IMG/VR virus record: IMGVR_UViG_3300033153_006994
Span: 1 to 52,467 of that record
Strand: one strand, 5' to 3'
Length of the DNA stretch: 52,467 nucleotides
Origin: a virus
Taxonomy: Duplodnaviria; Caudoviricetes
This document shows positions 18,053-52,467 of the stretch, piece by piece. Below the pieces are notes generated by a model. That model saw only the letters and a program-made list of their open reading frames with translations, was not told the origin of the DNA and made no database searches. Position 1 is the stretch's first letter. The number at the start of each line of letters is the position of its first letter. The position numbers and the translations under genes are program-made.

Positions 18053-18295
18053 TCAATGGTGTTTCTTGGAAGAGGAAACCATAGGACAACCCATGGTTTC
18101 CTTTTCGTCATATTGGCAAATTTGATCATATGCAAGAATCGCTGCCTGTGTTTGTACACCATTGTCATCCCATATGGGATTGACACCTGGAGGGAGGATG
18201 CCTATTCGGAGGCAGGCTCTCCAGATGGCGTACTCTCCGGTGCGATATTTAGGCCAGAGGATTCGCTTGGAACCGGAGCCTGCCCACGTAGAAAA
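18053..18295 (-). CDS. Tail assembly chaperone -1 frameshift extension (gpT-like)
   Basis: Open -1 frame from TCT TTT CTA reading STWAGSGSKRILWPKYRTGEYAIWRACLRIG...KKHH-stop at 18053. Confidence 0.7.
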   Translation of the reverse strand, partial: FSTWAGSGSKRILWPKYRTGEYAIWRACLRIGILPPGVNPIWDDNGVQTQAAILAYDQICQYDEKETMGCPMVSSSKKHH

Positions 18296-24469: not shown

Positions 24470-25351
24470 TTACATTCCGACAAGTTCGGGGTGTTCTTTT
24501 CGGATTTTTCGATATTGAGCAGGTGTCAGCTTACTCACATCGATAGGACCACCGTCACCCGATGCTGCGCCACCGGTAGCGTTATTGGCACCCAAACCAG
24601 AGACAACATTCGCTTTGAAGAGATTGGCATGTAGACGGATCTCTCGCATTCGTTTTACAATCTCGTCAGGTGTCCCAGAAAAGGTTACCTTCTCTCCCTT
24701 ATCATCATGGTCAGGAAAATTGACAACCGGCTCAAAACGACCAGTCTCATTTTCATTATCGTCAATAACGGGAATCAACTTTGTCATTGGACGAAGAAGC
24801 TGAACAATATGGTCAATGTTGTAGGCATCATTGTTCACCGCTGCATCTTGTAAGGCGCGATCGATACTCGAACCATGGAAACGATCTTCCCAGATTTTGC
24901 GAGCTTCTCGTTCGGTTTTCAACTGCACTTCGTAATCGTTTTTCAGTTGTTCTTTCTCGTGCTTGGCACGTTCCTCTTTGGTCCTCAATTGATTCTGAAC
25001 ATTTTCCAACCGTTCCTCAGCTTTGGAACGCTCTTCATCAGAAAGAGTTTTATGTTCCAAGAGTTCATTGTAACTAGATTCCAGAATTTTGTATTCTTCT
25101 TTTCGAGCAGCTTCACGACTCTTGCGGTCTCTCGCAAGACGCTCTTCAACGATCTTGTTGACGGCGGCAATATCAAATGTCTTACCAGCGCCAGCACCAG
25201 CACCAGCACCATCACCATCACCAGCACCAGCACCAGCACCAGCACCATCACCATCACCATCACCATCACCAGAACTTCCACTGGAACTAGTAGCGCCTTC
25301 GCCGTCGAAACAAGAAATTTGAGAAACGAACAAATACTTTTCATCAAACAT
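24470..25351 (-). CDS. Capsid scaffolding protein
   Basis: Start MFDEKY at 25351 after GGAG; GAGAGDGD linker, FD...VNKIV..RLAR, coiled coil, C-terminal LTPAQYRKIR. Confidence 0.85.
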   Translation of the reverse strand: MFDEKYLFVSQISCFDGEGATSSSGSSGDGDGDGDGAGAGAGAGDGDGAGAGAGAGKTFDIAAVNKIVEERLARDRKSREAARKEEYKILESSYNELLEHKTLSDEERSKAEERLENVQNQLRTKEERAKHEKEQLKNDYEVQLKTEREARKIWEDRFHGSSIDRALQDAAVNNDAYNIDHIVQLLRPMTKLIPVIDDNENETGRFEPVVNFPDHDDKGEKVTFSGTPDEIVKRMREIRLHANLFKANVVSGLGANNATGGAASGDGGPIDVSKLTPAQYRKIRKEHPELVGM

Positions 25352-30560: not shown

Positions 30561-32249
30561 CTATAGAAAACGTTTAACATCTTCGCCGCTAGTGAGACTC
30601 GCCGCAAATGGCAAGGCAATTTCACTATACACGCGAGCAAGAGCAAAATGATCTTCGCCTGTACTGATGTACCTTGAGACTAAGTTATCTGTTTGTCGCT
30701 TTTGTTTCTCCTCAACCGAACCTTCTCTCACATACGTTCGGATCGGAGCCTGAATGTGTTGACGGTACTCCATTGACACATCCCGAGGAAGCATAATTCT
30801 ACGTGGTTGTCGAAATCGACCGAGAGCGGCACTGAACCAGTTCGATCGATCCACTGTTGCTATCGGACTGAAGTTGTCGTCATCACTTACCGAAATCTCT
30901 TTTGCTGTGACACCACGGCGAAATCGACACAACCACACATAACCTGGGAAGCGACGAGCGAATCTTCTGGCTTCCATTACTTGAGGGTCGGCGTCGACTA
31001 CGCAAGCTTGAATTTGCCATTCTCGCATCATCTCATCAAGGATATTCCAATCTTCTTCGTGAAACTTGGTCTCATAGAGCACCTTAGCGGTGGCAGCTAC
31101 ATTAAGGTCGTTGGCATATTGATCAAAGAAGTACTCGGTGACTTCAATGAAATTCCATTTTCCTTGATCGACACCCATGGTGATAATTCGGTTACCACCA
31201 ACAGGTCTTACGTCTTCTTTTGAGTGACTTGCAAGGCAAGCTTCCACATCATCTTCAGTGATCTTGGCACCATCACCAATATAGGGATGTCCAAGTTTTG
31301 AGTTGTGAAACTCGACATTGGCAGCTTCGTCGCCGAAACCCTTGAAGTGAGCAGTGACTAATTCACCAGGACTAACTGTGAAAGAGTACAACTGAGAAAT
31401 GGCGAAGCCTCGAATATCCGGGTTACCATTCTGATTGCCAACTTCCCACTTAGCCTTGCCAAGCCAATCAGGCTTGGCTTGTTGCTCCAATTTCCCACCA
31501 CACTCCTTGCACTTCAGGTAGGATTCGTGGCAGCGTTGATCATGGACACCTTCGCCAATGATCTCGATGCAGTCGGGCCAGACGAGTCTAGTTAGACGAC
31601 TACAACAGGGACACTTGAAGATAAAGTTCTCTTGGGTTGAATCCTGGAACAATTTATGGATGCCAAAATTCGGCACAGTTGGTGTGGAGATACCCCACAC
31701 CGTTTTGCTGAGTTGTCCATCCAAACGAGTCAGAGCTAAGTTGATAGCTTTCTGACTCATCTCGTCCAGTTCATCCAGTAGCAATACACTGACTGGAATC
31801 GACTTCAAGTTGGCATCACCACGACTACCACGAATGTAGAGCGTATTGGCACCTGCTTGCTTCAACTCAATCGAATTCACATCCGTGAAAAGGTGACTGA
31901 GGTATGGACTCAACTTGAGAGCGGTATTGAAACGTGACTTTGAGAAGTCACTAGCATTACGACTAGTAGGGAGAACGTATAATACGTCCTTCTGAACCAT
32001 GTCAAGTGTATAGAACGCCAAATTGATGAGTATCTCTGTGATACCTAATTGGGCTCCCTTCATCGCGTAGTTGAAGGAAGCCGTGGAGTTGTGCATTTCC
32101 TTGACCCATGGGTGATGCCTAGCGGAATAACCTCCGGAGAAGTCACCTCCCATGATTCTACGGTGAGCCGCCCATCGCAAGCAATTAGTAAGCGATTGAC
32201 TTTGTAAGCCTTCCGCAATTGTCTTCCTGAGTTCTTGCATCAAATCCAT
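30561..32249 (-). CDS. terL: Terminase large subunit, lambda GpA-like
   Basis: KGAQLGITE Walker A, LLDELDE Walker B, ISTPT, CPCC/CKEC, GVDQG nuclease, DHFALA. Confidence 0.92.
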   Translation of the reverse strand: MDLMQELRKTIAEGLQSQSLTNCLRWAAHRRIMGGDFSGGYSARHHPWVKEMHNSTASFNYAMKGAQLGITEILINLAFYTLDMVQKDVLYVLPTSRNASDFSKSRFNTALKLSPYLSHLFTDVNSIELKQAGANTLYIRGSRGDANLKSIPVSVLLLDELDEMSQKAINLALTRLDGQLSKTVWGISTPTVPNFGIHKLFQDSTQENFIFKCPCCSRLTRLVWPDCIEIIGEGVHDQRCHESYLKCKECGGKLEQQAKPDWLGKAKWEVGNQNGNPDIRGFAISQLYSFTVSPGELVTAHFKGFGDEAANVEFHNSKLGHPYIGDGAKITEDDVEACLASHSKEDVRPVGGNRIITMGVDQGKWNFIEVTEYFFDQYANDLNVAATAKVLYETKFHEEDWNILDEMMREWQIQACVVDADPQVMEARRFARRFPGYVWLCRFRRGVTAKEISVSDDDNFSPIATVDRSNWFSAALGRFRQPRRIMLPRDVSMEYRQHIQAPIRTYVREGSVEEKQKRQTDNLVSRYISTGEDHFALARVYSEIALPFAASLTSGEDVKRFL

Positions 32250-33227: not shown

Positions 33228-33734
33228 TTACGGGGCCACTACGGGCTCGACAGGGGCGACGGGAGCCGGGGCGACGGGAGCCGGGGCGACGGGAGCCGGG
33301 GCGACGGGAGCCGGGGCGACGGGAGCCGGGGCGACGGGAGCCGAGGCGACGGGAGCGGCAGGGCTCAACATCCGCTCGACGGATTCCAGTTCCGATCTGA
33401 CAAGGGCACGTCCCTCTTGGGTGGCAAGCTTCATCTTCATAAGGTTGTCGAACACGTCCGACAGGTCAGCCAGAATGTCCTTGTCATTGCCCCGTAGTTT
33501 CTCAACTACCATAGCCATCTTGGAAAACATCCCGCTATAATCTCCAACGGCATAGTCCTGAAAAAGTTGAGCCATGGACTTGAAACCCATCGCAGTCAGC
33601 TTAGCAGATAGTTCGATGGCCTTACGCCGACGATCTTCAATCTCAGTATCTTTACGGAACAGCCATCTCGCTGCGAAATAACTGGCAGCAATGGCAAGAA
33701 CAATACAAACGATGTGCATCAAGGATAGAGTCAT
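33228..33734 (-). CDS. N-terminal TM helical protein with (APVAP)n tail
   Basis: IVCIVLAIAASYFAA TM segment; AAGGAG SD before ATG at 33734. Confidence 0.7.
   Translation of the reverse strand: MTLSLMHIVCIVLAIAASYFAARWLFRKDTEIEDRRRKAIELSAKLTAMGFKSMAQLFQDYAVGDYSGMFSKMAMVVEKLRGNDKDILADLSDVFDNLMKMKLATQEGRALVRSELESVERMLSPAAPVASAPVAPAPVAPAPVAPAPVAPAPVAPAPVAPVEPVVAP
33252..33357. repeat. 15-bp tandem repeat GGGGCGACGGGAGCC, about 7 copies
   Basis: Direct read; encodes APVAP. Confidence 0.9.
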
Positions 33735-36147: not shown

Positions 36148-36713
36148 CGGAGTCTCCTTGCTCGTTTTAGAATGCCTTTTCTGCGTTCATAACGGATCAA
36201 GCGGTTTGGATTCCATCGTGAAGCACTACTAGTCTGTAAGAGACCGATTCTCGCATGGGCAGCAGCAACCAACTCGCTACAAAAAATATAGTTCAGGTCT
36301 TCGCCACTGAATCTTGACTCCAGCCAAGATAAACCATGAGTAGCAGATCGCATTCCACCATGCAAATCGTAAAGGGTGCCAACCTTCTCAAGCAAGAATT
36401 CATTCAGCCTATCAAACTCAAAACTAAACAGAGGTCGATAGAGTGGATAGTGGTAGACTCGACCATTATATGATTTGACTCTGTCCGCCAATCGGACACC
36501 TTGTACACCCTTAAATGGCTTTTGTTGAATGACACAAGGGATATCGCTGAGTGTCGTGGACTCAAAGAGTAGTTGTTCGCCTTCATACTCCCCTATAATG
36601 CCAACGTGACTCGCCCAGAAGAATGGCCAGCCAAATGTCACAAGATTTACGATAATACTCTTGTGACCAAAGCCACTAAAAGCTACGATGTCACCTGTCT
36701 TGATCTCTGCCAT
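36132..36713 (-). CDS. Permuted papain-like NlpC/P60 (YiiX/YebB-type) enzyme
   Basis: GDIV, SHVGI, G..YD, FCSELVAAA in permuted order. Confidence 0.85.
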   Translation of the reverse strand: MAEIKTGDIVAFSGFGHKSIIVNLVTFGWPFFWASHVGIIGEYEGEQLLFESTTLSDIPCVIQQKPFKGVQGVRLADRVKSYNGRVYHYPLYRPLFSFEFDRLNEFLLEKVGTLYDLHGGMRSATHGLSWLESRFSGEDLNYIFCSELVAAAHARIGLLQTSSASRWNPNRLIRYERRKGILKRARRLRCEDF

Positions 36714-37150
36714 GGTAGTCTCCTATGCACAAGCAAACTCCCAACAAGTTCTTGTCTCAAACTATCAAGAGCAATGGCAGCCTCAGTAACAGTGTCATGG
36801 TATCCGGCGAAGTGACTTTTGCCATTAGTTTGTATTTGACTATAGTATTTATCCCGACGTTTATCAAGATAGACACCTTTAATACCAGTCGAAACTGCTC
36901 GAAGATTTGACCGACAATTATTGAGAGGATCTCGATCTTTGTGATCAATTGATTTTGTGTCAAGACCCATATGTTCAGCAATTACCCGATACATCAGTTG
37001 GAGTCTTGTTCTACCATTGGACCAAATACCCCGTACTGGACGATAATGCCATCCATCCCAGGATGCACACCACTTCCACTATATCAGATACTCGTAATCG
37101 ATATCATCAACGAGAGCAATTTGCCCTTGAGTCAGTTCGATTGTCTTCAT
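36683..37150 (-). pseudogene. HNH-AP2 endonuclease remnant
   Basis: MKTIELTQGQIALVDDIDYEYLI*WKW (TAG at 37079-37081), IDHKDRDPLNNCRSNLR joined directly to TGIKGV (internal deletion). Confidence 0.85.
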
Positions 37151-39050: not shown

Positions 39051-39229
39051 TGCCGATTCAAAGATGTACGAAAAATGGGAAACCCGGTTACAAGTATGGT
39101 GAAGATGGTGCGTGTTACACGTACACGGCTGGAAACAAAGCCAGTCGGGATGCCGCATACACCAAGGCTGCGAAACAAGCAGCAGCAATCAAGGCGAGTC
39201 AAGCACGGGGAGGTAAGCCAAGGCCATGA
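39050..39229 (+). CDS. Small basic phage protein
   Basis: MPIQRC...GYKYG...KQAAAIKAS; TAATG coupling. Confidence 0.65.
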   Translation: MPIQRCTKNGKPGYKYGEDGACYTYTAGNKASRDAAYTKAAKQAAAIKASQARGGKPRP

Positions 39230-39615
39230 CATCCGAAGATCGTGTGCTCAATCACTATGAGCATCCATACCATCGACACATTCCTACGAAGCCAAGAGAC
39301 TTCGCTTTCTACTTCACAGGGGATTTCGATAATGATACCTGTGGAGATCATGTCAGAGTTTGGGGTCGGTATGATGCCACTCCGGAGAAACGGATTGTCG
39401 GTCTCTGGTGGGAGGGCGAAGGATGTTGTTTCTCGCAGGCGATGGCTTCAATGCTTGCGGAGCACTGTGAAGCGAAGAGGCTGTATGAAGTGAAGGCGTT
39501 TACACAGGACGATATGCTTGCCCTGTTCGGAATTGATGTTGAGCCAGGGCGTATCGAATGCGTGATGGTCGCGCTCAACGCATTACACAAAGCACTGGAG
39601 AAACACGATGAGTAA
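39226..39615 (+). CDS. IscU/SufU (NifU_N)-like Fe-S scaffold protein
   Basis: HYEHP, N.TCGD, GEGCCFSQA.AS, RIEC: three conserved Cys. Confidence 0.85.
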   Translation: MTSEDRVLNHYEHPYHRHIPTKPRDFAFYFTGDFDNDTCGDHVRVWGRYDATPEKRIVGLWWEGEGCCFSQAMASMLAEHCEAKRLYEVKAFTQDDMLALFGIDVEPGRIECVMVALNALHKALEKHDE

Positions 39616-40342
39616 GTTTGACAAAGGCATAGCAGTGACAGCGTTTGTAGTTTTCCTTGTGATAGTGGTGTTTGCACTGCTTCAAATTCATTCTGATCCG
39701 GAAGTCGATTTAGGTCCACCACCTATCAATACACCTATTGAGCGCGTTTATACGCCCTCCGAAGCCACAATAGAAGTTTCAGCCTACTTTAGTGATCAGC
39801 GGGTATATGGGAAGGGAATTATTGTTCAACACAATGGTCAGATGTTCGTGCTGACTAGTTCGATGATCTTCAACAAGGATGTGGAGCGTATCGAAGTCGA
39901 GACATTGGAATGGATTCGTGAGACTGAAATCTTACATCAGAATAATGTTTGGGGGTTGGTCGCTCTGGAATGTCCTTTGTTAGCGTACACACCTTTCATC
40001 GAACTGAATGATGACCCTAATATCCCGCCGCTTATACCCGTGGGTATCAATGGATGGTCCGCCTCGACACTCGAATACATCAACGACGATTGGGTGCTTC
40101 TCGATGATCTCCCAGAAGAAGATTGCACTGGGTGCCCTGTTGTTCAAAATGGCTACGTCGTGGGTATTGTCGTTGGGATAAATCGAATCAATCGGGATCA
40201 AGCTATCATGGTTTCCAATAGGGCACTGAAAGAGTTCTGTGATCAGGTGACACTCGTTAATGATGTCCCAAATGTTTCGGATGCTCCACCTGTGTTTCAT
40301 CCGTCCGCCAATCCTAATATACTTTTTGGGAATGAACAATGA
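39608..40342 (+). CDS. Membrane-anchored degenerate trypsin-like protein
   Basis: N-terminal TM; G.GII..VLT and G.PVV...VVGIV fold motifs; catalytic His/Ser not conserved. Confidence 0.55.
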   Translation: MSKFDKGIAVTAFVVFLVIVVFALLQIHSDPEVDLGPPPINTPIERVYTPSEATIEVSAYFSDQRVYGKGIIVQHNGQMFVLTSSMIFNKDVERIEVETLEWIRETEILHQNNVWGLVALECPLLAYTPFIELNDDPNIPPLIPVGINGWSASTLEYINDDWVLLDDLPEEDCTGCPVVQNGYVVGIVVGINRINRDQAIMVSNRALKEFCDQVTLVNDVPNVSDAPPVFHPSANPNILFGNEQ

Positions 40343-40822
40343 AATTCGACTGGGTCATCGGTAACATTATCGGACTTGTACTCGGTGTCATTGTCGGCAT
40401 CGCTTTTATCCTTTATCTGTATAGTGTGTTCGTATTAGGAGCCCCTCATGGATTTTGATTGGATGTATTACCTAAGACTTTTGATAACTATCATCGGCAG
40501 TTTTGTAGCGGGTGGTATCAGTGGTTGGTTTCTCGTCAATCTCGTCAATTTCTTCTTCTGGTTGATGTCATGAAGCGTACGAGAAAGAGCCCTTCATTGC
40601 GAATGGTATTATCCAAGATGAAGACATTAAGCAACTCGTCAAATGAGCAGACAATTTGCACAAATCATGGGATTGAACGACCGAGATCATCCCCGAACCA
40701 ATCTATAGGAGAAGACGATGAGTTATAAGCCTGGTACAACAAATGGAATGTTCGTAGCGGTGGCGATCTTCTACATAGTCCTGTTCATTTCCATCATAAT
40801 CACCTACCTTTGGATTGTATGA
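40339..40822 (+). CDS. Run of overlapping micro-ORFs, three of them single-TM (40339-40458, 40448-40573, 40718-40822)
   Basis: Manual translation; 34-41 aa hydrophobic peptides with ATGA or short overlaps and SD sites. Confidence 0.6.
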
Positions 40823-41097
40823 TGAAATACTTCAAATTTGTTGGTGGACCATGGGATGGCAAATATCATAAAATAGATGGTCGTGATCATCTCAATGTTG
40901 CTTATCCGAGCCTTGTTGAACGTCAGCTTGCTGAGCCAGTTGAAGTCACCGAGATTGATCCCATGAAAATTTGTCAATACGTATTGAGGGAATTCTCAGT
41001 GAATGGAGATAACAAGATCAGTTTCTACGTGGACTCTCATTGGGGCGACATGTACACTTTCAGTCAACTTCTACACCATTATCAAGGAAGATCATGA
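40819..41097 (+). CDS. Hypothetical phage protein
   Basis: FVGGPWDG motif; ATGA coupling. Confidence 0.65.
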   Translation: MMKYFKFVGGPWDGKYHKIDGRDHLNVAYPSLVERQLAEPVEVTEIDPMKICQYVLREFSVNGDNKISFYVDSHWGDMYTFSQLLHHYQGRS

Positions 41098-41741
41098 AAA
41101 CCATCCCAATACCCGCACTGACAGATTCAGACCTGAAAAGGTTTTGGGATAAAGTCTGTAAAGGTGTACCCGATGAATGTTGAGAATGGTTGGGTGCCAC
41201 CTGTAAAATGGGCTATGGTCGATTTGTAATATCACGTGTTGCATATCAAGCAACACGAATCTCGTACACTCTTGCTAATGAAGACCCCCGGCGAATTGAA
41301 TATCAACCATACTTGTGACAATCCATCTTGTATGAATCCGGACCATCTTTGGACCGGAACTCAGAAAGAAGGTATGATTGATAAAGTCAATAAGGATCGG
41401 CAACACAAAGGAGAAGAGATAATTCAATCCATTCTTACTACAAAAGTTGTGAAAGATATTCTTTCCTCTAAGGAAACTTTGCAAGTCCTCACCGCCCGAT
41501 ATAGTGTTTGTACCGAAACTATCTCACGAATCAGGCGGGTATAACTTGGCAACATATCGAAGGGGTAAGAACAACTGAAAATGTCTAAAAGAACAGCCAG
41601 ACTGGGATACCCGGTGTCACACCTTGTCGAGGAAAGTATCAGGTGAATGTCACCTACAAAGGGAAAAGAAAGTATCTCGGACTATTTGATGATGTTGGTA
41701 ACGCAAAGCAAACTTTAGATAAATGGAAATTGACCCATTGA
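41094..41741 (+). pseudogene. HNH-AP2 endonuclease pseudogene
   Basis: Paralog of 45049..45690 with TGA at 41181, two frameshifts and a further TAA. Confidence 0.85.
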
Positions 41742-42595
41742 AAACTCACACCTTCTCAGTTGTTGTCGGCGACCAGCGTTGCAATGCTAAATGTCCGTTT
41801 TGTGTTGCCCAGCTAACCGCCTCGGATTTCTCTGATTATGTCGACTTCGATGAGAGCAAGTTCAATTGTGCCATCCGAATCGTCGAACAGATGCGTGAGG
41901 GACTTCTCACTGTCCTACTGACCGGACAGGGTGAGCCGTTGCTCTTCCCCAAACAGATCACGCGATACTTGGACGTGATCAATGGGCGATTTCCCCGAAT
42001 TGAATTGCAAACGAACGGCACATTAGTCACAAAAAATCTAACGAACCTGCGACGATGGCAGGATGATGGTCTCACATTGGTGTGCTTGTCGATTGCTTCA
42101 CATAGTGCTAAGCACAGTAACCAGGTCATGGGTATCAAAAGTATCAGTTATGATTACTGGCATACTGCATCCATGTTGAAGGACATTGGGTTGAACGTGC
42201 GACTGAATTGCACAATGACAACGGCAGGCACATACCTTCCTGCGGATTGTGAAAAGATCATCGATCGCGCCAACAATGCTGGCATCGATCAGGTTACATT
42301 CCGCGAAGTCGAGATGCCATCAGTATCATTGGACTCAAAGATCGCGGCGTGGGTTGCTGCCCACAAGCCCGAGGATGCCGCTAAGAAGCTGCACCACTAT
42401 CTAGCCCTGAATGGGGCGGTCGAGTTGTTACAACTTCCACACGGAGGTAGAGTTTACAACTACAAGGATCAGAACGTAGCCATAGGGACTTGCTTGACGG
42501 AAACGACCAACCCCGATGACATTCGACAGATCATTTTCTTCCCAGATTCGCGAATAGCATATAGCTGGCAATACCCTGCGGCGAGATTGCTATGA
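41723..42595 (+). CDS. Radical SAM enzyme
   Basis: CNAKCPFC (CxxxCxxC), TGQGEPLL, QTNG. Confidence 0.9.
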   Translation: MEIDPLKTHTFSVVVGDQRCNAKCPFCVAQLTASDFSDYVDFDESKFNCAIRIVEQMREGLLTVLLTGQGEPLLFPKQITRYLDVINGRFPRIELQTNGTLVTKNLTNLRRWQDDGLTLVCLSIASHSAKHSNQVMGIKSISYDYWHTASMLKDIGLNVRLNCTMTTAGTYLPADCEKIIDRANNAGIDQVTFREVEMPSVSLDSKIAAWVAAHKPEDAAKKLHHYLALNGAVELLQLPHGGRVYNYKDQNVAIGTCLTETTNPDDIRQIIFFPDSRIAYSWQYPAARLL

Positions 42596-42723
42596 GATGC
42601 CTAACAATACCAAAACTCGCTGAAGAACGACTCAAACGCTTCTGGGTAAAAGTCAATAAGAGTGAAGATTGCTGGGAATGGACTGCATGGACTGCACGCG
42701 ATCTTGAGAAAAAGAACTTTTGA
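42592..42723 (+). pseudogene. Truncated HNH endonuclease N terminus
   Basis: RFWVKVNKSEDCWEWT then stop. Confidence 0.7.
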
Positions 42724-42758
42724 CTCACATCTTGTTTGGAATCCGATAGGAGAGACTC

Positions 42759-43037
42759 ATGAGAAACACAATACCACCTGAGACCGAAGAACAACTGAAA
42801 GCATGGAACGCCGACCGGCTTGAAATGATAAAGGTACAGAAAGAGATTGATGAACTCAACACGAAACTTGTTGGTTTGCATGAACATATGGAGGGTGTTT
42901 CACGGAGGTTGGAAAATATCCTCATCGATCTTGAGCAGCCCCTCGGTTTGAAGATTGGCGAAGACTACGTCGTCATTATCCAAGACCCATGTTCTGATGT
43001 CTTCACTATTCAGACTGTCAACTTTGACCTTCGCTAG
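42759..43037 (+). CDS. Hypothetical coiled-coil protein
   Basis: AGGAG SD; 92 aa. Confidence 0.6.
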   Translation: MRNTIPPETEEQLKAWNADRLEMIKVQKEIDELNTKLVGLHEHMEGVSRRLENILIDLEQPLGLKIGEDYVVIIQDPCSDVFTIQTVNFDLR

Positions 43038-43051
43038 GAGATTGTCGACTC

Positions 43052-43702
43052 ATGAATTACACACCAAAGCAAATCGCTGACGTTTTGGACTACGCTGTAC
43101 TCGATCCCAAGGTAGGCAACAAAACCATTGTTGAATGCGCCGACGAATGTGCCAACATTGGTATCAAGTGCTTCTGCTGTTCCTCAGCGAACGTGAAGAT
43201 CGCTTCCTTCTATCACCCCAATGTGGCGTCTGTGATTGGCTTCCCGCATGGTAATGTTAGTCCGCGTGCCAAACTGGAAGAAGCAAAGTTTGCTATTGGT
43301 GATGGTGCCAAGGAACTGGATGTGGTTATCAACTATGGGTTGTTCAACACGGGCGAGACCGGCATCATTCGAGCAGAATTGGAAAGACTCTGCACTTTCG
43401 CACATCACCATGATGTCCTCGTGAAGGCAATCCTTGAGACTTGCACAATGGACCTTGTGAGAGTCGTCGCTGCGGTTCGAGAATGTATCAAATCGGAAGT
43501 CGATTATGTCAAGACTTCTACCGGTTTTGGAGATGGAGGAGCCACTAAATGGGCTGTCGAAGCAATGATTGATGAGACCAAAGGCACTGGCGTCAAAGTG
43601 AAGTCCAGTGGAAACATCAAGACCTATCAAGATGTTGTGAAGTATCTCGACATGGGGTGCCAGCGTCTTGGAGCAAGCCACTATAAGGAATTGTTGCCAT
43701 GA
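43052..43702 (+). CDS. deoC: Deoxyribose-phosphate aldolase
   Basis: VIGFPHG, GAKELDVVIN, KAILET, VKTSTGF (Schiff-base Lys), KSSG, RLGAS. Confidence 0.95.
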   Translation: MNYTPKQIADVLDYAVLDPKVGNKTIVECADECANIGIKCFCCSSANVKIASFYHPNVASVIGFPHGNVSPRAKLEEAKFAIGDGAKELDVVINYGLFNTGETGIIRAELERLCTFAHHHDVLVKAILETCTMDLVRVVAAVRECIKSEVDYVKTSTGFGDGGATKWAVEAMIDETKGTGVKVKSSGNIKTYQDVVKYLDMGCQRLGASHYKELLP

Positions 43703-44238
43703 ACAGACTGAAGCACACAAGAGCCTACCTTTGTGGGTCCATGGATCGTTCGCCTGATAATGGTGAAACTTGGCGACGGCAAATTCGCTATCATCTTGAC
43801 GATCTCGGTATTCTCTGGCTTGACCCAACACACAAACCGATCAACATTGGTATCGAAGATGAGGAAAGTCGCCGTTGTCGACGTGCGAACAAAGCCGCCG
43901 GTTGGTATGATCTTGTCACTGATGAGATGGTGCCGATACATGATGTCGATATCAGGATGGTCAATATCAGTGACTTCCTGATTGTCAACATCGATGTTGA
44001 AGTCCACGCTTGTGGAACCTACTTTGAGTTCAAGCAGGCGAACGATCAGAATAAACCGATCTTGGTCCACGTTGAGCAGGGGAAACATAAGGTTCCTGAT
44101 TGGTTGCTCGCGTGCATCCCACATGAGCACATCTTCAATACCTGGCTCGATTTGCAAAAGTACGTGCGACACATTGCCAATGACAAAGTGATAAATCATC
44201 TGGGACGTTGGATGTTTTTTGATTTTCACGGCGAATAA
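43699..44238 (+). CDS. Nucleoside 2-deoxyribosyltransferase / dNMP N-glycosidase-like protein
   Basis: YLCGSM, D...V..SD, GTYFE, KPI motifs; ATGA-coupled to deoC. Confidence 0.75.
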   Translation: MNRLKHTRAYLCGSMDRSPDNGETWRRQIRYHLDDLGILWLDPTHKPINIGIEDEESRRCRRANKAAGWYDLVTDEMVPIHDVDIRMVNISDFLIVNIDVEVHACGTYFEFKQANDQNKPILVHVEQGKHKVPDWLLACIPHEHIFNTWLDLQKYVRHIANDKVINHLGRWMFFDFHGE

Positions 44239-44274
44239 GGTACCGAAGGCTGCAACGATGGAGGTAACGCGCTC

Positions 44275-44502
44275 ATGCGACATGGTAGAAAGAAGCCCTA
44301 CACGGAAGTAGGCATCAAGAGGCTTCCATGCGTGAAGTGTGGTGAACCGGCGACACAGCAATGGTGTGCGTGCGCCGATGGTCTCTGGAGACCGATCTGC
44401 ACAAAGTGCGACATCGCCTTAAATGGAGTCGTGTTGATGTTCATAGGTGACCCCGATGTTGTTGCCAAGATGAAGCGATACCAGGAGAAGATGAATGCCT
44501 GA
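44275..44502 (+). CDS. Small zinc-finger protein
   Basis: CVKC and CTKC pairs; GGAGG SD. Confidence 0.6.
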   Translation: MRHGRKKPYTEVGIKRLPCVKCGEPATQQWCACADGLWRPICTKCDIALNGVVLMFIGDPDVVAKMKRYQEKMNA

Positions 44503-45052
44503 CATCTGGTTTACGGCGGATACCCATTTCGCACATCCGAACATCCTCAAGCACATGCCTCTCCGTGAATTTGAGGACATCGTTGACATGGAAGATTGCT
44601 TCATCAACACCATCAACGACTTGGTGAAGCCAAAAGATACGCTGGTTGTGGCTGGCGACTTCTGTTGGAAGGCGGGACAGGTCGGCCATTTCCGCCAGAG
44701 ACTGAACGTGCGTGAGATTCATGTAGCGATGGGCAACCATGATGCGGCTTCATTAAAGAATCATGTATCTATGTGTCGGGATATGCTGTTCGAGAAGTTC
44801 AATGGACGATGGTTCCATATAGTCCATTACCCCTTATTGTCGTGGCGAAAAATGAACCACATGGGGATATGTTGCTATGGGCATTCACATGGACTCGCTG
44901 AGGAAATGCTTGATGAACTCTGGCCATATCGCAACTCAATGGATATTGGTATCGATGCAGCTTTGCAACTGACTGGGCAGTTTCGCCCATTTCACATTGA
45001 TGAAGTGGTTGCCCGTTGCTCGAATGACTCAGAAAGAATCGACCACGCATGA
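44495..45052 (+). CDS. Calcineurin-like metallophosphoesterase
   Basis: DTHFAH, GD, GNHD, HYP, GHSH. Confidence 0.9.
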   Translation: MPDIWFTADTHFAHPNILKHMPLREFEDIVDMEDCFINTINDLVKPKDTLVVAGDFCWKAGQVGHFRQRLNVREIHVAMGNHDAASLKNHVSMCRDMLFEKFNGRWFHIVHYPLLSWRKMNHMGICCYGHSHGLAEEMLDELWPYRNSMDIGIDAALQLTGQFRPFHIDEVVARCSNDSERIDHA

Positions 45053-45690
45053 ACAAACCGATACCTCGACTGACCGACGCCGATGTTGCCCGGTTCTGGA
45101 ACAAGGTAGACAAGAGTAGTGACTGTTGGCTCTGGGTTGCCCACACAAACAACAGAGGGTACGGGCAATTTGGCATAGGTGATAGTCTCTACCTTGCGCA
45201 CCGGATATCATATACCATTGCAAGTGGTGACCCAGGTGGATTGAATGTGAACCATACCTGTGATACACCATCTTGTGTGAATCCGACGCATCTCTGGACT
45301 GGAACTCAGCAGGATGGCATGAATGATATGATCGCCAAGAGTCGACATTGCCATGGCAGTCAACATGATAAAGCAAAGTTGACCGAAAATCAAGTGGAAG
45401 AGATTCTTGCATCAGAAGAATTTCATCAAACTCTTGCTGATTGCTACGGAGTTGCTTTAGGAACCATCTCGAAGATCAAACGAGGTGAGAAATGGAGACA
45501 TGTCAAAGGGAAACGAAGTCTCGGTGCTAACACTAACAAAACAGGTACGAGGGGTGTTTCGTTAGACAAAGCATCAGGTAAATACCGCGCACGAATTGTA
45601 ATCAAAGGCAAACGCTGCCAACTCGGAATGTTTACCAGTATCGAAGACGCCATGAAAGCTGTGGCCAAACATCGGAAGAAGAACCCATGA
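45049..45690 (+). CDS. HNH homing endonuclease with AP2-like domain
   Basis: RFW.KV...CWLW, AHR, HTCDTPSCVNP.HL, TGTRGV...LGMF. Confidence 0.9.
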   Translation: MNKPIPRLTDADVARFWNKVDKSSDCWLWVAHTNNRGYGQFGIGDSLYLAHRISYTIASGDPGGLNVNHTCDTPSCVNPTHLWTGTQQDGMNDMIAKSRHCHGSQHDKAKLTENQVEEILASEEFHQTLADCYGVALGTISKIKRGEKWRHVKGKRSLGANTNKTGTRGVSLDKASGKYRARIVIKGKRCQLGMFTSIEDAMKAVAKHRKKNP

Positions 45691-48252: not shown

Positions 48253-48816
48253 TCAATCACTCAAGGACATGGTGCCACCACAAACACAAGTTGGTGCTCC
48301 TAAGTCAGCCCATTTGCGACTTGTCCTGAGAAGGTATCCACATGAGTCACATGTCACCTTGAGCATCCATGTGCTTTGGGGTTTCTTAGTAATAGGCGTC
48401 AACTTAGCGTGTGGATATTCGCCTAACTCTTCTTCGATGGCCCTCAGCCGAACCATCAAAACCTTCCCAGCGACAGTCGCCGTCATTTTTCCAGTGAGTC
48501 CAATGGCCTTCGCGGTGACGCGAAACGGACCCTTGTGACCTTCTTCACAGCCAACGGCGGCATGAACCAGTTCATGGACCAGTACGTCGAGCACCTTGAT
48601 TGCGTCACTGAGCATCGGGTTGATGAAAACCTCGGTAGTCTCATCCTCGGAGCAACTGGGAGGGAAGCATTGTCCAATCACCTGTTTCTTCCCCGGTCGC
48701 CCGCCTGTGCTCGGCCATCCGCATGTGACGCGGAGCTTCTTCGGGATTGGGCTGATGGGCTTGAAGTCCTCTCGAAGGAGGGTAGTGGCGGCATTGAGCC
48801 ATTCTTCACGTGTCAT
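48253..48816 (-). CDS. SprT-like metalloprotease
   Basis: HELVH, GHKGPF, C-terminal CDSC/CVC; AAGGAG SD. Confidence 0.8.
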   Translation of the reverse strand: MTREEWLNAATTLLREDFKPISPIPKKLRVTCGWPSTGGRPGKKQVIGQCFPPSCSEDETTEVFINPMLSDAIKVLDVLVHELVHAAVGCEEGHKGPFRVTAKAIGLTGKMTATVAGKVLMVRLRAIEEELGEYPHAKLTPITKKPQSTWMLKVTCDSCGYLLRTSRKWADLGAPTCVCGGTMSLSD

Positions 48817-48877: not shown

Positions 48878-49296
48878 GTGAGAAAATCTGAAAATTCAGA
48901 AATGGCCATAGCCATTTCTGAAAGAATGGGCTTTGCCCGCTGCGCCGAATTGACCCCACCCTACCCACGGGCAGCCAGACACTACAAAACAAGGGTCTGA
49001 GAAGCCGGACGAGATCAACTGCCACCCTTTTGGCAAGGAAAATTCAGTGTAAGTCATTGGCATGTCGTGGGTTAAATGAGGTATTTGGCAAAATAAGGGG
49101 TAAAAATACCTTGCATCTACTTATACACTTTTATATTAAGTTTTTCTATAGGTTTAATATATAAAGTATACTCCCTTATTTGGCTACTTTTTGACGTAAG
49201 CTGAATTGCCACACTGGCTTCCATCCAGGCGCAGAACTCGTTTTAGGGTAAACCGTTACTCGAAATCGCCAAATTGCATCATGTCACTTCCAAAAG

Positions 49297-50007
49297 TGTA
49301 TCATTTTGATACAAGTGTGTTGAGCTAATGTATCAAAATACTACACCCCCAGTGATAGGGTTTTCCCTACCATTAGGGGGTATAATAAACGATTATCGCC
49401 ACATCCCTGTCACATTTACATCTACATCTTGACGCGGCACCTGTTCATGAAAAATTCAAAATCCGTGTCGATAGGGCAGCGGGATATAGTATCTAGGTGG
49501 GGTATGTTACCCACCCGGATTTTGACCCCCTCTTCGGGGATCGTCACACTACCCATTCAATCATACCTTAGTATGTACATACACATACGATAGGATGATC
49601 GGCACAACCATCACCCCCTTGATGGGTGGGTTCGCATAGCTTACATTATGCGAACCTATTGATAGGTGGTATGTACCCCTTTGCGAGAGGGAGATCGGCA
49701 TTTACTATATCACCCACCACTGGGGTCAGTTCACCACCCCATCCCTTCATCTAGGTGACTTCTATACCTGTGGGTGTCTTTACCCTATTTGGGTGTAGTC
49801 AAAATGACTGCGCGCTATCAAAGTGTAGTCATTTTGATACCCCCTAAGCAGGGGGTTTTGAGCGCGGTCATTAACCGCGCGCATACTTCCGTCCATTTTG
49901 TTGACGTAACCTCTTACCACATATAGACTTAGCAATCTGCCATTTTGGTAGACTTTAAGAAATACCTGCCATTTTGGCAGTCTCCAGTGTAGTCATATTG
50001 ACTACAC
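49297..50007. promoter_or_regulatory. Five related palindromic protein-binding sites, GTGTA(G)TCA-N3-TGA(C)TAC
   Basis: Copies at about 49297, 49329, 49793, 49823 and 49987; the last has perfect 9-bp arms (GTGTAGTCA-TAT-TGACTACAC). Confidence 0.7.
49629..49656. other. dif-like Xer recombination site
   Basis: Minus strand GGTTCGCATAA-TGTAAG-CTATGCGAACC: 11-6-11 architecture resembling the XerC arm and spacer of bacterial dif. Confidence 0.7.
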
Positions 50008-50100
50008 CTATCCGCTACTGGGGTGGTAGATACACCTATCCGCTATTGGGGTGGTAGATACATCTATCCGCTAGTGGGGTAGTAGATACACCCTATCCAC
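50003..50100. repeat. 28-bp tandem repeat, about 3.5 copies (iteron-like)
   Basis: TACACCTATCCGCTA[C/T/G]TGGGGTGGTAGA at 50003, 50031, 50059, partial at 50087. Confidence 0.9.
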
Positions 50101-50150: not shown

Positions 50151-50255
50151 ACACACCACACACCACACACACCACACACCACACACCACACACCACACAC
50201 CACACACCACACACCACACACACCACACACCACACACCACACACCACACACCACC
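50151..50255. repeat. (ACACACC)n simple repeat, about 14 units with occasional extra AC
   Basis: Direct read. Confidence 0.95.
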
Positions 50256-52358: not shown

Positions 52359-52467
52359 GGCGACCAGCAGGCGACCAGCAGGCGACCAGCAGGCGACCAG
52401 CAGGCGACCAGCAGGCGACCAGCAGGCGACCAGCAGGCGACCAGCAGGCGACCAGCAGGCGACCAGC
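52359..52467. repeat. 11-bp perfect tandem repeat GGCGACCAGCA, about 10 copies, truncated by the window end
   Basis: Direct read. Confidence 0.95.

Follow-up and report, generated by a model that had tools for sequence, protein, structure and literature searches.

The loxP site of phage P1 consists of inverted 13-nt arms around an asymmetric 8-nt spacer and is recombined by Cre, a single homotetrameric tyrosine recombinase that P1 encodes next to the site and that serves both cyclisation of the phage DNA and dimer resolution of the plasmid prophage. The dif sites of the XerC/XerD system have an 11-6-11 layout with distinct XerC and XerD arms and occur as one copy per replicon at the terminus; in the available part of PMC2731167, the inner tetranucleotide is described as the best-conserved part of the arms and the XerD arm, of the TTATGTTAAAT type, as the better conserved half. 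One Xer-like enzyme acting on nearly symmetric inverted arms is the arrangement of XerS/difSL, XerH/difH and archaeal XerA/dif, and the accessible text of PMC5357621 places the site next to the recombinase gene for xerS/difSL and some xerA/dif. The same text describes IMEX (CTX, VGJ and TLC phages and a gonococcal island) as mobile elements that lack an integrase of their own and carry a dif-like site, and the IMEX named there and in the accessible text of PMC12715192 comprise islands and two kinds of phage, filamentous and double jelly-roll.

We analysed the complete record of a tailed phage contig (52.5 kb, positions 1 to 52,467; hereafter the window), in which a sequence-only reading had pointed to a nearly symmetric 11-6-11 dif-like site. 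The site was confirmed at 49629-49656, where the + strand reads GGTTCGCATAG-CTTACA-TTATGCGAACC, the string first reported being that of the - strand. The left 11-nt arm (49629..49639), a putative recombinase-binding half-site, has G rather than A as its inner base; the asymmetric 6-nt spacer CTTACA (49640..49645) is the putative crossover region; and the right 11-nt arm (49646..49656) is the left arm inverted. Complementarity between the arms is 10/11, the exception being the innermost pair, where G faces T. At ≤3 mismatches the arm pattern occurred once in the window and in 0/100 shuffles. Palindromes of 11-6-11 layout with at least 10/11 pairs numbered three in the window, the other two lying at 18074-18101 and 48895-48922, versus 0.39 on average over 100 mononucleotide shuffles; because of this excess the palindrome alone is weak evidence, and the evidential weight therefore rests on conservation and on matches elsewhere. 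The palindrome at 48895-48922 is perfect (TTCAGAAATGG-CCATAG-CCATTTCTGAA) and lies immediately upstream of the promoter-like site of a SprT-like gene. An exact-arm scan of IMG/VR, in a set that may lack the window's own record, returned 0 contigs. At the DNA level the intergenic region matched none of the GenBank phages, no public sequencing run was found to contain it, and a literature search with the arm sequences found only proteobacterial dif listings and unrelated primers.

Read on the - strand, the site matched E. coli dif, as given in the available part of PMC3025954, at 10/11 positions in the left arm, 4/6 in the spacer and 6/11 in the right arm. The sequence-only reading is right on both of its points here, namely that the left arm departs from the E. 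coli XerC arm at one base and that the right arm is a mirror image of the left and not XerD-like. The same left arm is identical at 11/11 positions to the XerC arms of Erwinia carotovora subsp. atroseptica dif (PMC2731167) and Dickeya aquatica dif (bioRxiv 10.1101/568105), as far as these sites are given in the accessible portions of the two sources. The phage site thus shares with dif its length of 28 bp, its 11-6-11 layout and the inner ATAA/TTAT, with ATAG in place of ATAA in one window arm, and it differs in having two like arms where dif has a XerC and a XerD arm. Moreover, it lies on a phage contig, and its bacterial counterparts number 1-16 per genome (counted on MAG contigs) with unrelated spacers, in contrast to the unique terminus site of dif. 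Judged by these sequence features, the 28-mer does not match a XerC/XerD dif.

Structural genes, including TerL (30561-32249), occupy the - strand up to ~37 kb, and early and auxiliary genes occupy the + strand from 38 to 48 kb. The auxiliary set at 39226-45690 and 36683-36994 encodes NifU-like, radical SAM, DeoC aldolase, nucleoside 2-deoxyribosyltransferase and metallophosphoesterase proteins, and there are three HNH endonuclease genes as well. The SprT-like gene (48253-48816, - strand; 187 aa, phrog_6361, HExxH motif) encodes a protein that matched no Pfam family; its relatives (40-54% identity) are numerous, with 113 confirmed cases in IMG/VR and 253 in metagenome contigs. The site itself lies in ~1 kb without long ORFs (48878..49900, as delimited by the ORF list, the promoter scan and an alignment), which also holds several other blocks conserved in a related contig, L089. 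This gap is flanked by divergent promoter-like sites (48877->48850 on the - strand and 49901->49929 on the + strand) that are consensus matches only, from the promoter scan. Some 350 nt to the right of the site, 28-nt direct repeats in 3.4 copies (50003..50098) are iteron-like and constitute a possible, putative origin. An (ACACACC)n microsatellite of 14 units follows at 50151-50254, and the contig ends inside an 11-nt tandem repeat of 9.9 units (52359-52467). As the L089 contig also stops near the 28-nt repeats and the (ACACACC)n microsatellite, these repeats probably break assemblies. Further tandem repeats, of ACCAGC in 14.8 copies and of a 15-nt unit in 6.9 copies, run in frame within ORFs of the structural region (25184-25272 and 33253-33356) and were the source of the only DNA matches to Chloroflexia genomes. 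Rfam searches at gathering thresholds and tRNA scans of the window returned nothing.

The window is a genome fragment, with about half of the genome sampled, because CheckV completeness is 51%, the first ORF is cut and the right end lies inside a tandem repeat; end repeats were absent. The cut ORF corresponds to the tail of a 320-aa ORF in a relative, L377, which runs on for 9 kb past the left end of the window (L377:6698-16253), and the metagenome contig behind L089 is 89.7 kb long. The L377 extension encodes a DUF5906 primase/helicase-like protein (949 aa), an RNase_T exonuclease, a protein with a dATP/dGTP diphosphohydrolase N-domain and a ParB-like protein (ParB_N + HTH_ParB). The dATP/dGTP diphosphohydrolase family is found in phages that replace adenine. 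A six-frame PF00589 search of the window gave 0 matches at E≤10, and a Xer-like recombinase profile found nothing below E=2 in the window or in related contigs L081-L090, while two control loci scored; tyrosine recombinases were likewise absent from the examined 13.6 kb of L089 and 16.3 kb of L377. The claim of a tailed phage with no visible integrase is accordingly sound for the 52.5-kb window but cannot be made for the whole phage, since the contig is a fragment. The sequence-only reading had also named a tyrosine recombinase and par genes as things to look for: the former was absent from the window, L081-L090 and L377, and a ParB-like gene was present in L377, where it may bear on a plasmid-like lifestyle.

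The homologous intergenic region was covered by one relative only, L089, whose SprT-like protein is 72% identical. Its site has the same two arms around the spacer GATACA, so that the arms are unchanged at 22/22 positions, including the odd inner G, and the spacers agree at 4/6 bases (CTTACA vs GATACA). Over the 587 columns of the intergenic alignment identity was 57%, and the site was one of the two best-conserved 28-nt stretches. Another relative, L090 (70%), differed in the upstream region and had no such site in its 13.4 kb, and L088 was too short to be informative on site presence. The expectation that relatives would carry the site was thus borne out in L089, with exact arms, and not in L090.

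We then considered bacterial genomes, scanning one genome per species (185,579 species) with the 20 outer arm bases specified. This exact-arm scan gave four matches versus ~0.5 expected by chance (our own arithmetic): an unclassified MAG, a Candidatus Chloroheliaceae MAG, a Chloroflexia MAG and a Nitrospinota MAG (G001-G004), two of them Chloroflexia. In 4/4 matches the two unspecified inner bases completed ATAA/TTAT, so that all four genomes have the same left arm with inner A and an identical right arm. The layout was always 11-6-11, and the four spacers were all different, none being that of the phage. Each of these genomes held a single copy at ≤3 mismatches, in varied neighbourhoods: dnaK/dnaJ, a glycosidase with an M29 peptidase, cas4/cas7 and, in G003, a tyrosine recombinase.

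The sequence-only reading had proposed a search for related prophages integrated at dif, and none came to light: in the four exact-arm genomes the site was surrounded by ordinary bacterial genes, with no integrated copy flanked by two dif-like sites, and no close relative of TerL was found in 401 Chloroflexia genomes (best 26-37% identity). Comparison of the phage DNA with five candidate genomes gave only simple-repeat matches. The GC content of the loci from G002, G003 and G007 is 46-49% vs 46% for the phage, a likeness that lends weak support to a host in this group. Canonical dif candidates were also sought in the exact-arm genomes. CATAA-N6-TTATG cores in G002 and G003 (10 and 8) were at the level of the reversed pattern used as control (10 and 14); in G001 and G004 they were above control (6 and 7 vs 2 and 1). 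Two cores with a dif-like spacer were rejected as dif since their arms are non-dif, and one of them overlaps a start codon. Patterns based on the XerD arm were at control level in G001-G003, and the matches in another genome, G120, were further members of a multi-copy site family.

That family emerged when the template GGWT-N3-ATAA-N6-TTAT-N3-AWCC was searched in the 401 Chloroflexia genomes with the reversed pattern as control. The template returned 35 sites in 14 genomes, and the control had matches in 2 genomes. Among the 35 sites, 30 were symmetric and 28 perfectly so, where ~0.3 perfect sites would be expected with free N3 bases. Symmetric sites occurred in 9/401 genomes, with one or two copies in seven of them, 11 in G120 and 9 in G147. 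Arm differences between genomes, at arm positions 3 and 5-7, were mirrored on both sides. When one mismatch was allowed, G120 and G147 had 16 and 11 copies, some of them hybrids that combine different arms. With spacers of 0-20 nt allowed, 17/18 exact-arm copies in these two genomes had a 6-nt spacer and one an 8-nt spacer; 17 different spacers were found among the 18, GCTTAC occurring once in each genome. Within single genomes, copies shared one flank up to the border of arm and spacer and diverged from the spacer on (130 nt in G072, 35 nt in G007 and 26 nt in G083). Many bacterial copies extend the palindrome beyond the arms, some by 6-10 copy-specific pairs, and this extension, which a plain protein site would not need, suggests a hairpin or cruciform role.

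Several features of the surroundings of these sites were noted. Most symmetric sites of G120 and G147 (loci L193-L217) come after a shared ~170-nt unit with a -10-like box and AGCAGGGGAGGAGTT, and five of them are then followed by AAAACCGGGGCGGCGNATTGCTCCCCCAC; the spacer CAACCG and the right flank ATAAATRGGCTAATATTAGG are common to the hybrid sites, and the genes beside these sites included no recombinase. A conserved mini-ORF ending in the TAA of the arm in G120 and G147 was dropped after the reading frames were inspected by eye. The ORFs in the 6.6-kb segment between two G083 sites had no Pfam matches, and 20 bacterial loci gave no Rfam match at E≤0.1. Five of the template matches (L186-L190, in G103, G091, G078, G036 and G173) are an asymmetric single-copy 28-mer, GGTTATGATAA-TGCACA-TTATACAAACC, with the spacer TGCACA in four and TATGAA in G173. 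A tyrosine recombinase ORF of 345-347 aa is located ~120 nt downstream of it in G103 and G091. This 28-mer is a candidate for a dif-plus-recombinase module or a shared integrated element. The literature matches for dif, Xer and Chloroflexi were PMC3025954, which in its available part covers only Dehalococcoides among Chloroflexi, and bioRxiv 10.1101/2022.12.17.520857.

The neighbourhood of the identical-arm site in G003 connects the family to a recombinase. A 382-aa tyrosine recombinase gene begins 35 nt downstream of the site; its best NCBIfam matches were XerA, XerC and XerD, all below cut-off, and its nearest solved chains were XerD and XerA. Homologues (E≤1e-30) were found in 11/401 Chloroflexia genomes, and the Chloroflexia recombinase (354-451 aa) scored under every NCBIfam Xer cut-off. 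Eight genomes had both site and recombinase, one the site only, three the recombinase only and 389 neither (Fisher p 9.5e-14, relatedness ignored), a co-occurrence that may in part be due to a single clade with both traits. In G003, G026 and G044 the site is found upstream of the recombinase gene, at distances of 35, 67 and 120 nt, respectively, and with a different arm sequence in each; G044, counted above as recombinase only, has a perfect site with arms just outside the template. In the other 8 of the 11 recombinase-bearing genomes no site was found within ~1.5 kb of the gene. The exact-arm genomes G001 and G004, as well as G083, had only distant tyrosine recombinases (best E ~1e-14 to 1e-16). 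In G002, G003 and G026 there is also a XerD-like gene that scores better (268-287 bits), besides numerous further tyrosine recombinases, so that this subfamily is one candidate for the cognate enzyme.

The template also occurred in viral DNA. At least 120 IMG/VR contigs contained it, and the matches listed included 10 fully symmetric sites vs ~0.9 expected; none of the symmetric-site contigs among those listed belongs to a relative of this phage. A Xer-like ORF was present in 5 of the listed 120 contigs, lying ≤50 nt from the site in three of the five (L289, L345 and L256). The recombinase subfamily was represented in IMG/VR by 6 loci, the best at 34% identity and none related to this phage. 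An unrelated viral contig, L302, carries a near-identical site, GGTTCGTATAA-TAAGAA-TTATGCGAACC (L302:4412-4439), in a ~640-nt gap between ORFs of ≥60 aa, with one 65-aa ORF overlapping the site.

Set beside the other described systems, the phage site resembles loxP in being phage-borne with inverted arms and an asymmetric spacer, and the lox-type combination of perfectly inverted arms, an asymmetric spacer and a fixed length (6 nt in the 17/18 bacterial copies) was found; it departs from Cre/loxP in its 11-nt arms and 6-nt spacer, with no recombinase gene seen in the window. It resembles the single-recombinase modules in its nearly symmetric inverted arms and presumed single Xer-like enzyme, and in adjoining the recombinase gene in three Chloroflexia genomes (3/11 of those bearing the recombinase); unlike them, the phage copy has no adjacent recombinase gene, several Chloroflexia genomes hold many copies of the site, and a role in chromosome dimer resolution would be only putative. 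As in IMEX, a dif-like site is present without a visible integrase in the window, whereas the phage is tailed, the site is symmetric and no integrated copy was found in the four exact-arm genomes or, by TerL, in the 401 Chloroflexia genomes. As to matching with a host site, the arms equal those in four MAGs and the spacers match in 0/4.

In our view the odds are about even that the 28-mer serves as a core site of the lox/dif type on which one Xer-like recombinase acts in trans. What points this way is its architecture, the invariance of the inner ATAA/TTAT, arm changes that are mirrored, a spacer of fixed length and free sequence, the link in occurrence to the recombinase and the recurrent adjacency to tyrosine recombinase genes. 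Each of the two inverted 11-bp arms would bind one tyrosine recombinase monomer, and the strands would be cut and exchanged in the 6-bp asymmetric spacer. In the phage the enzyme would have to act in trans; its most likely source would be the host chromosome, from the subfamily found beside identical or co-varying Chloroflexia sites, and a less likely one the phage genome outside the sampled part. If the phage genome is circular, sister copies of the site could recombine and thereby resolve dimers or concatemer-derived multimers, or cyclise the genome, and within the lox/dif-type reading we lean towards this outcome. The somewhat less probable alternative would be recombination with a chromosomal site of the same spacer, that is, integrase-less, IMEX-like integration. 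Sister-copy recombination is favoured because the arms are fixed while the spacers drift freely, in the two phages and among the bacterial copies, and integration would depend on a host site whose spacer is identical. The sequence-only reading's proposal that host Xer is used therefore stands in part: a Xer-type architecture, arms kept in L089, four bacterial matches and an association with a Xer-like gene agree with it, and the XerC/XerD dif form does not.

If the 28-mer were instead an operator, a dimeric transcription factor of host or phage would bind the half-sites without DNA exchange and the phage would carry the box of a host regulator, as phages do with, for example, LexA boxes. We regard this as unlikely. 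The position between divergent promoter-like sites would suit it, as would the copies in G003 and G026 that abut a promoter-like -35 or -10, the 11-16 copies in G120 and G147, a plausible regulon size, most of them ~17 nt past the shared promoter-like unit, and the 6-nt spacing, which is also compatible with a dimeric regulator. However, the arms vary at up to five positions within one class and yet remain symmetric, which would be unusual for a conserved regulator, the template is that of Xer sites, and tyrosine recombinase ORFs border the site in three bacterial genomes as well as in three viral contigs. We give a slightly lower probability to a structural hairpin in RNA or single-stranded DNA, such as an element for processing or stability, a terminator that lacks a U-tract or the hairpin of a replication origin, for which the dif likeness would be secondary. 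The region does fold better than shuffles (-53.5 kcal/mol, z -3.98 on the + strand; z -2.78 on the - strand), the sole arm mismatch, G opposite T, is a wobble on the + strand that is kept in L089, some bacterial stems are longer by the 6-10 copy-specific pairs when G-T is allowed, and the iteron-like repeats are near. Against it, neither the window nor the 20 bacterial loci yielded an Rfam family at the thresholds given above, no G+C-rich stem followed by a T-run marks a terminator-like site here, the stem extension is absent from the phage copies, and a conserved stem sequence with a free loop is the reverse of most functional RNAs. The loop-adjacent pairs are A/T only and the loop length is fixed at 6 nt; such an invariant A/T-rich inner tetranucleotide would be a poor top for a stable hairpin and thus supports the lox/dif-type reading.

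An attP that mimics the canonical XerC/XerD dif of a proteobacterial host, with XerC binding the perfect arm and exchanging one strand pair as in a VGJ-type IMEX, appears improbable to us. Its attraction lies in the XerC arms of Erwinia carotovora subsp. atroseptica and Dickeya aquatica, which equal the left arm in the dif listings available, and in the spacers, TGTAAG in the window and TGTATC in L089, which agree with TGTATA at 4/6 and 5/6 positions, the matches falling on the XerC side; according to the accessible text of PMC5357621, the homology of the VGJ attP to dif is confined to the XerC side of the spacer. But the right arm agrees with the XerD arm at 6/11 positions though the XerD arm is the better conserved half, the spacers of the two phages are no more alike than the background of their alignment, and the bacterial form is fully symmetric. 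As for a chance palindrome without function, the excess of near-palindromes in the window implies that such repeats arise here for other reasons too; nevertheless, the 22/22 arm identity in L089 against the 57% background and the identical arms in four unrelated genomes, where unspecified inner bases match as well, leave this reading very little probability.

Taken together, these comparisons partly support an orphan symmetric site of Xer/lox type in a tailed phage, tied to a Chloroflexia site family that has so far gone undescribed, and the phage probably borrows a Xer-like enzyme. The fuller picture is one that we put forward tentatively and hold to be rather doubtful as a whole: an integrase-less tailed phage of roughly 90-100 kb, possibly of Chloroflexia, would carry a symmetric dif-like site on which a single Xer-like recombinase of its host acts, with the outcome that the phage integrates or that a plasmid-like prophage stays monomeric, and the same enzyme would serve an undescribed symmetric 11-6-11 family with private spacers in 1-16 copies on some Chloroflexia chromosomes. 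If the lox/dif-type reading holds, a large tailed phage would join the filamentous and tailless phages in the use of host Xer-type enzymes, which would also extend to a single-recombinase system outside the model phyla, and the matching of arms and spacers would offer a handle for assigning the host of an uncultured phage group. Apart from the phage, Chloroflexia contain a family of symmetric dif-like sites that co-varies with a Xer-like recombinase, and its multi-copy layout with private spacers is not explained by chromosome dimer resolution.
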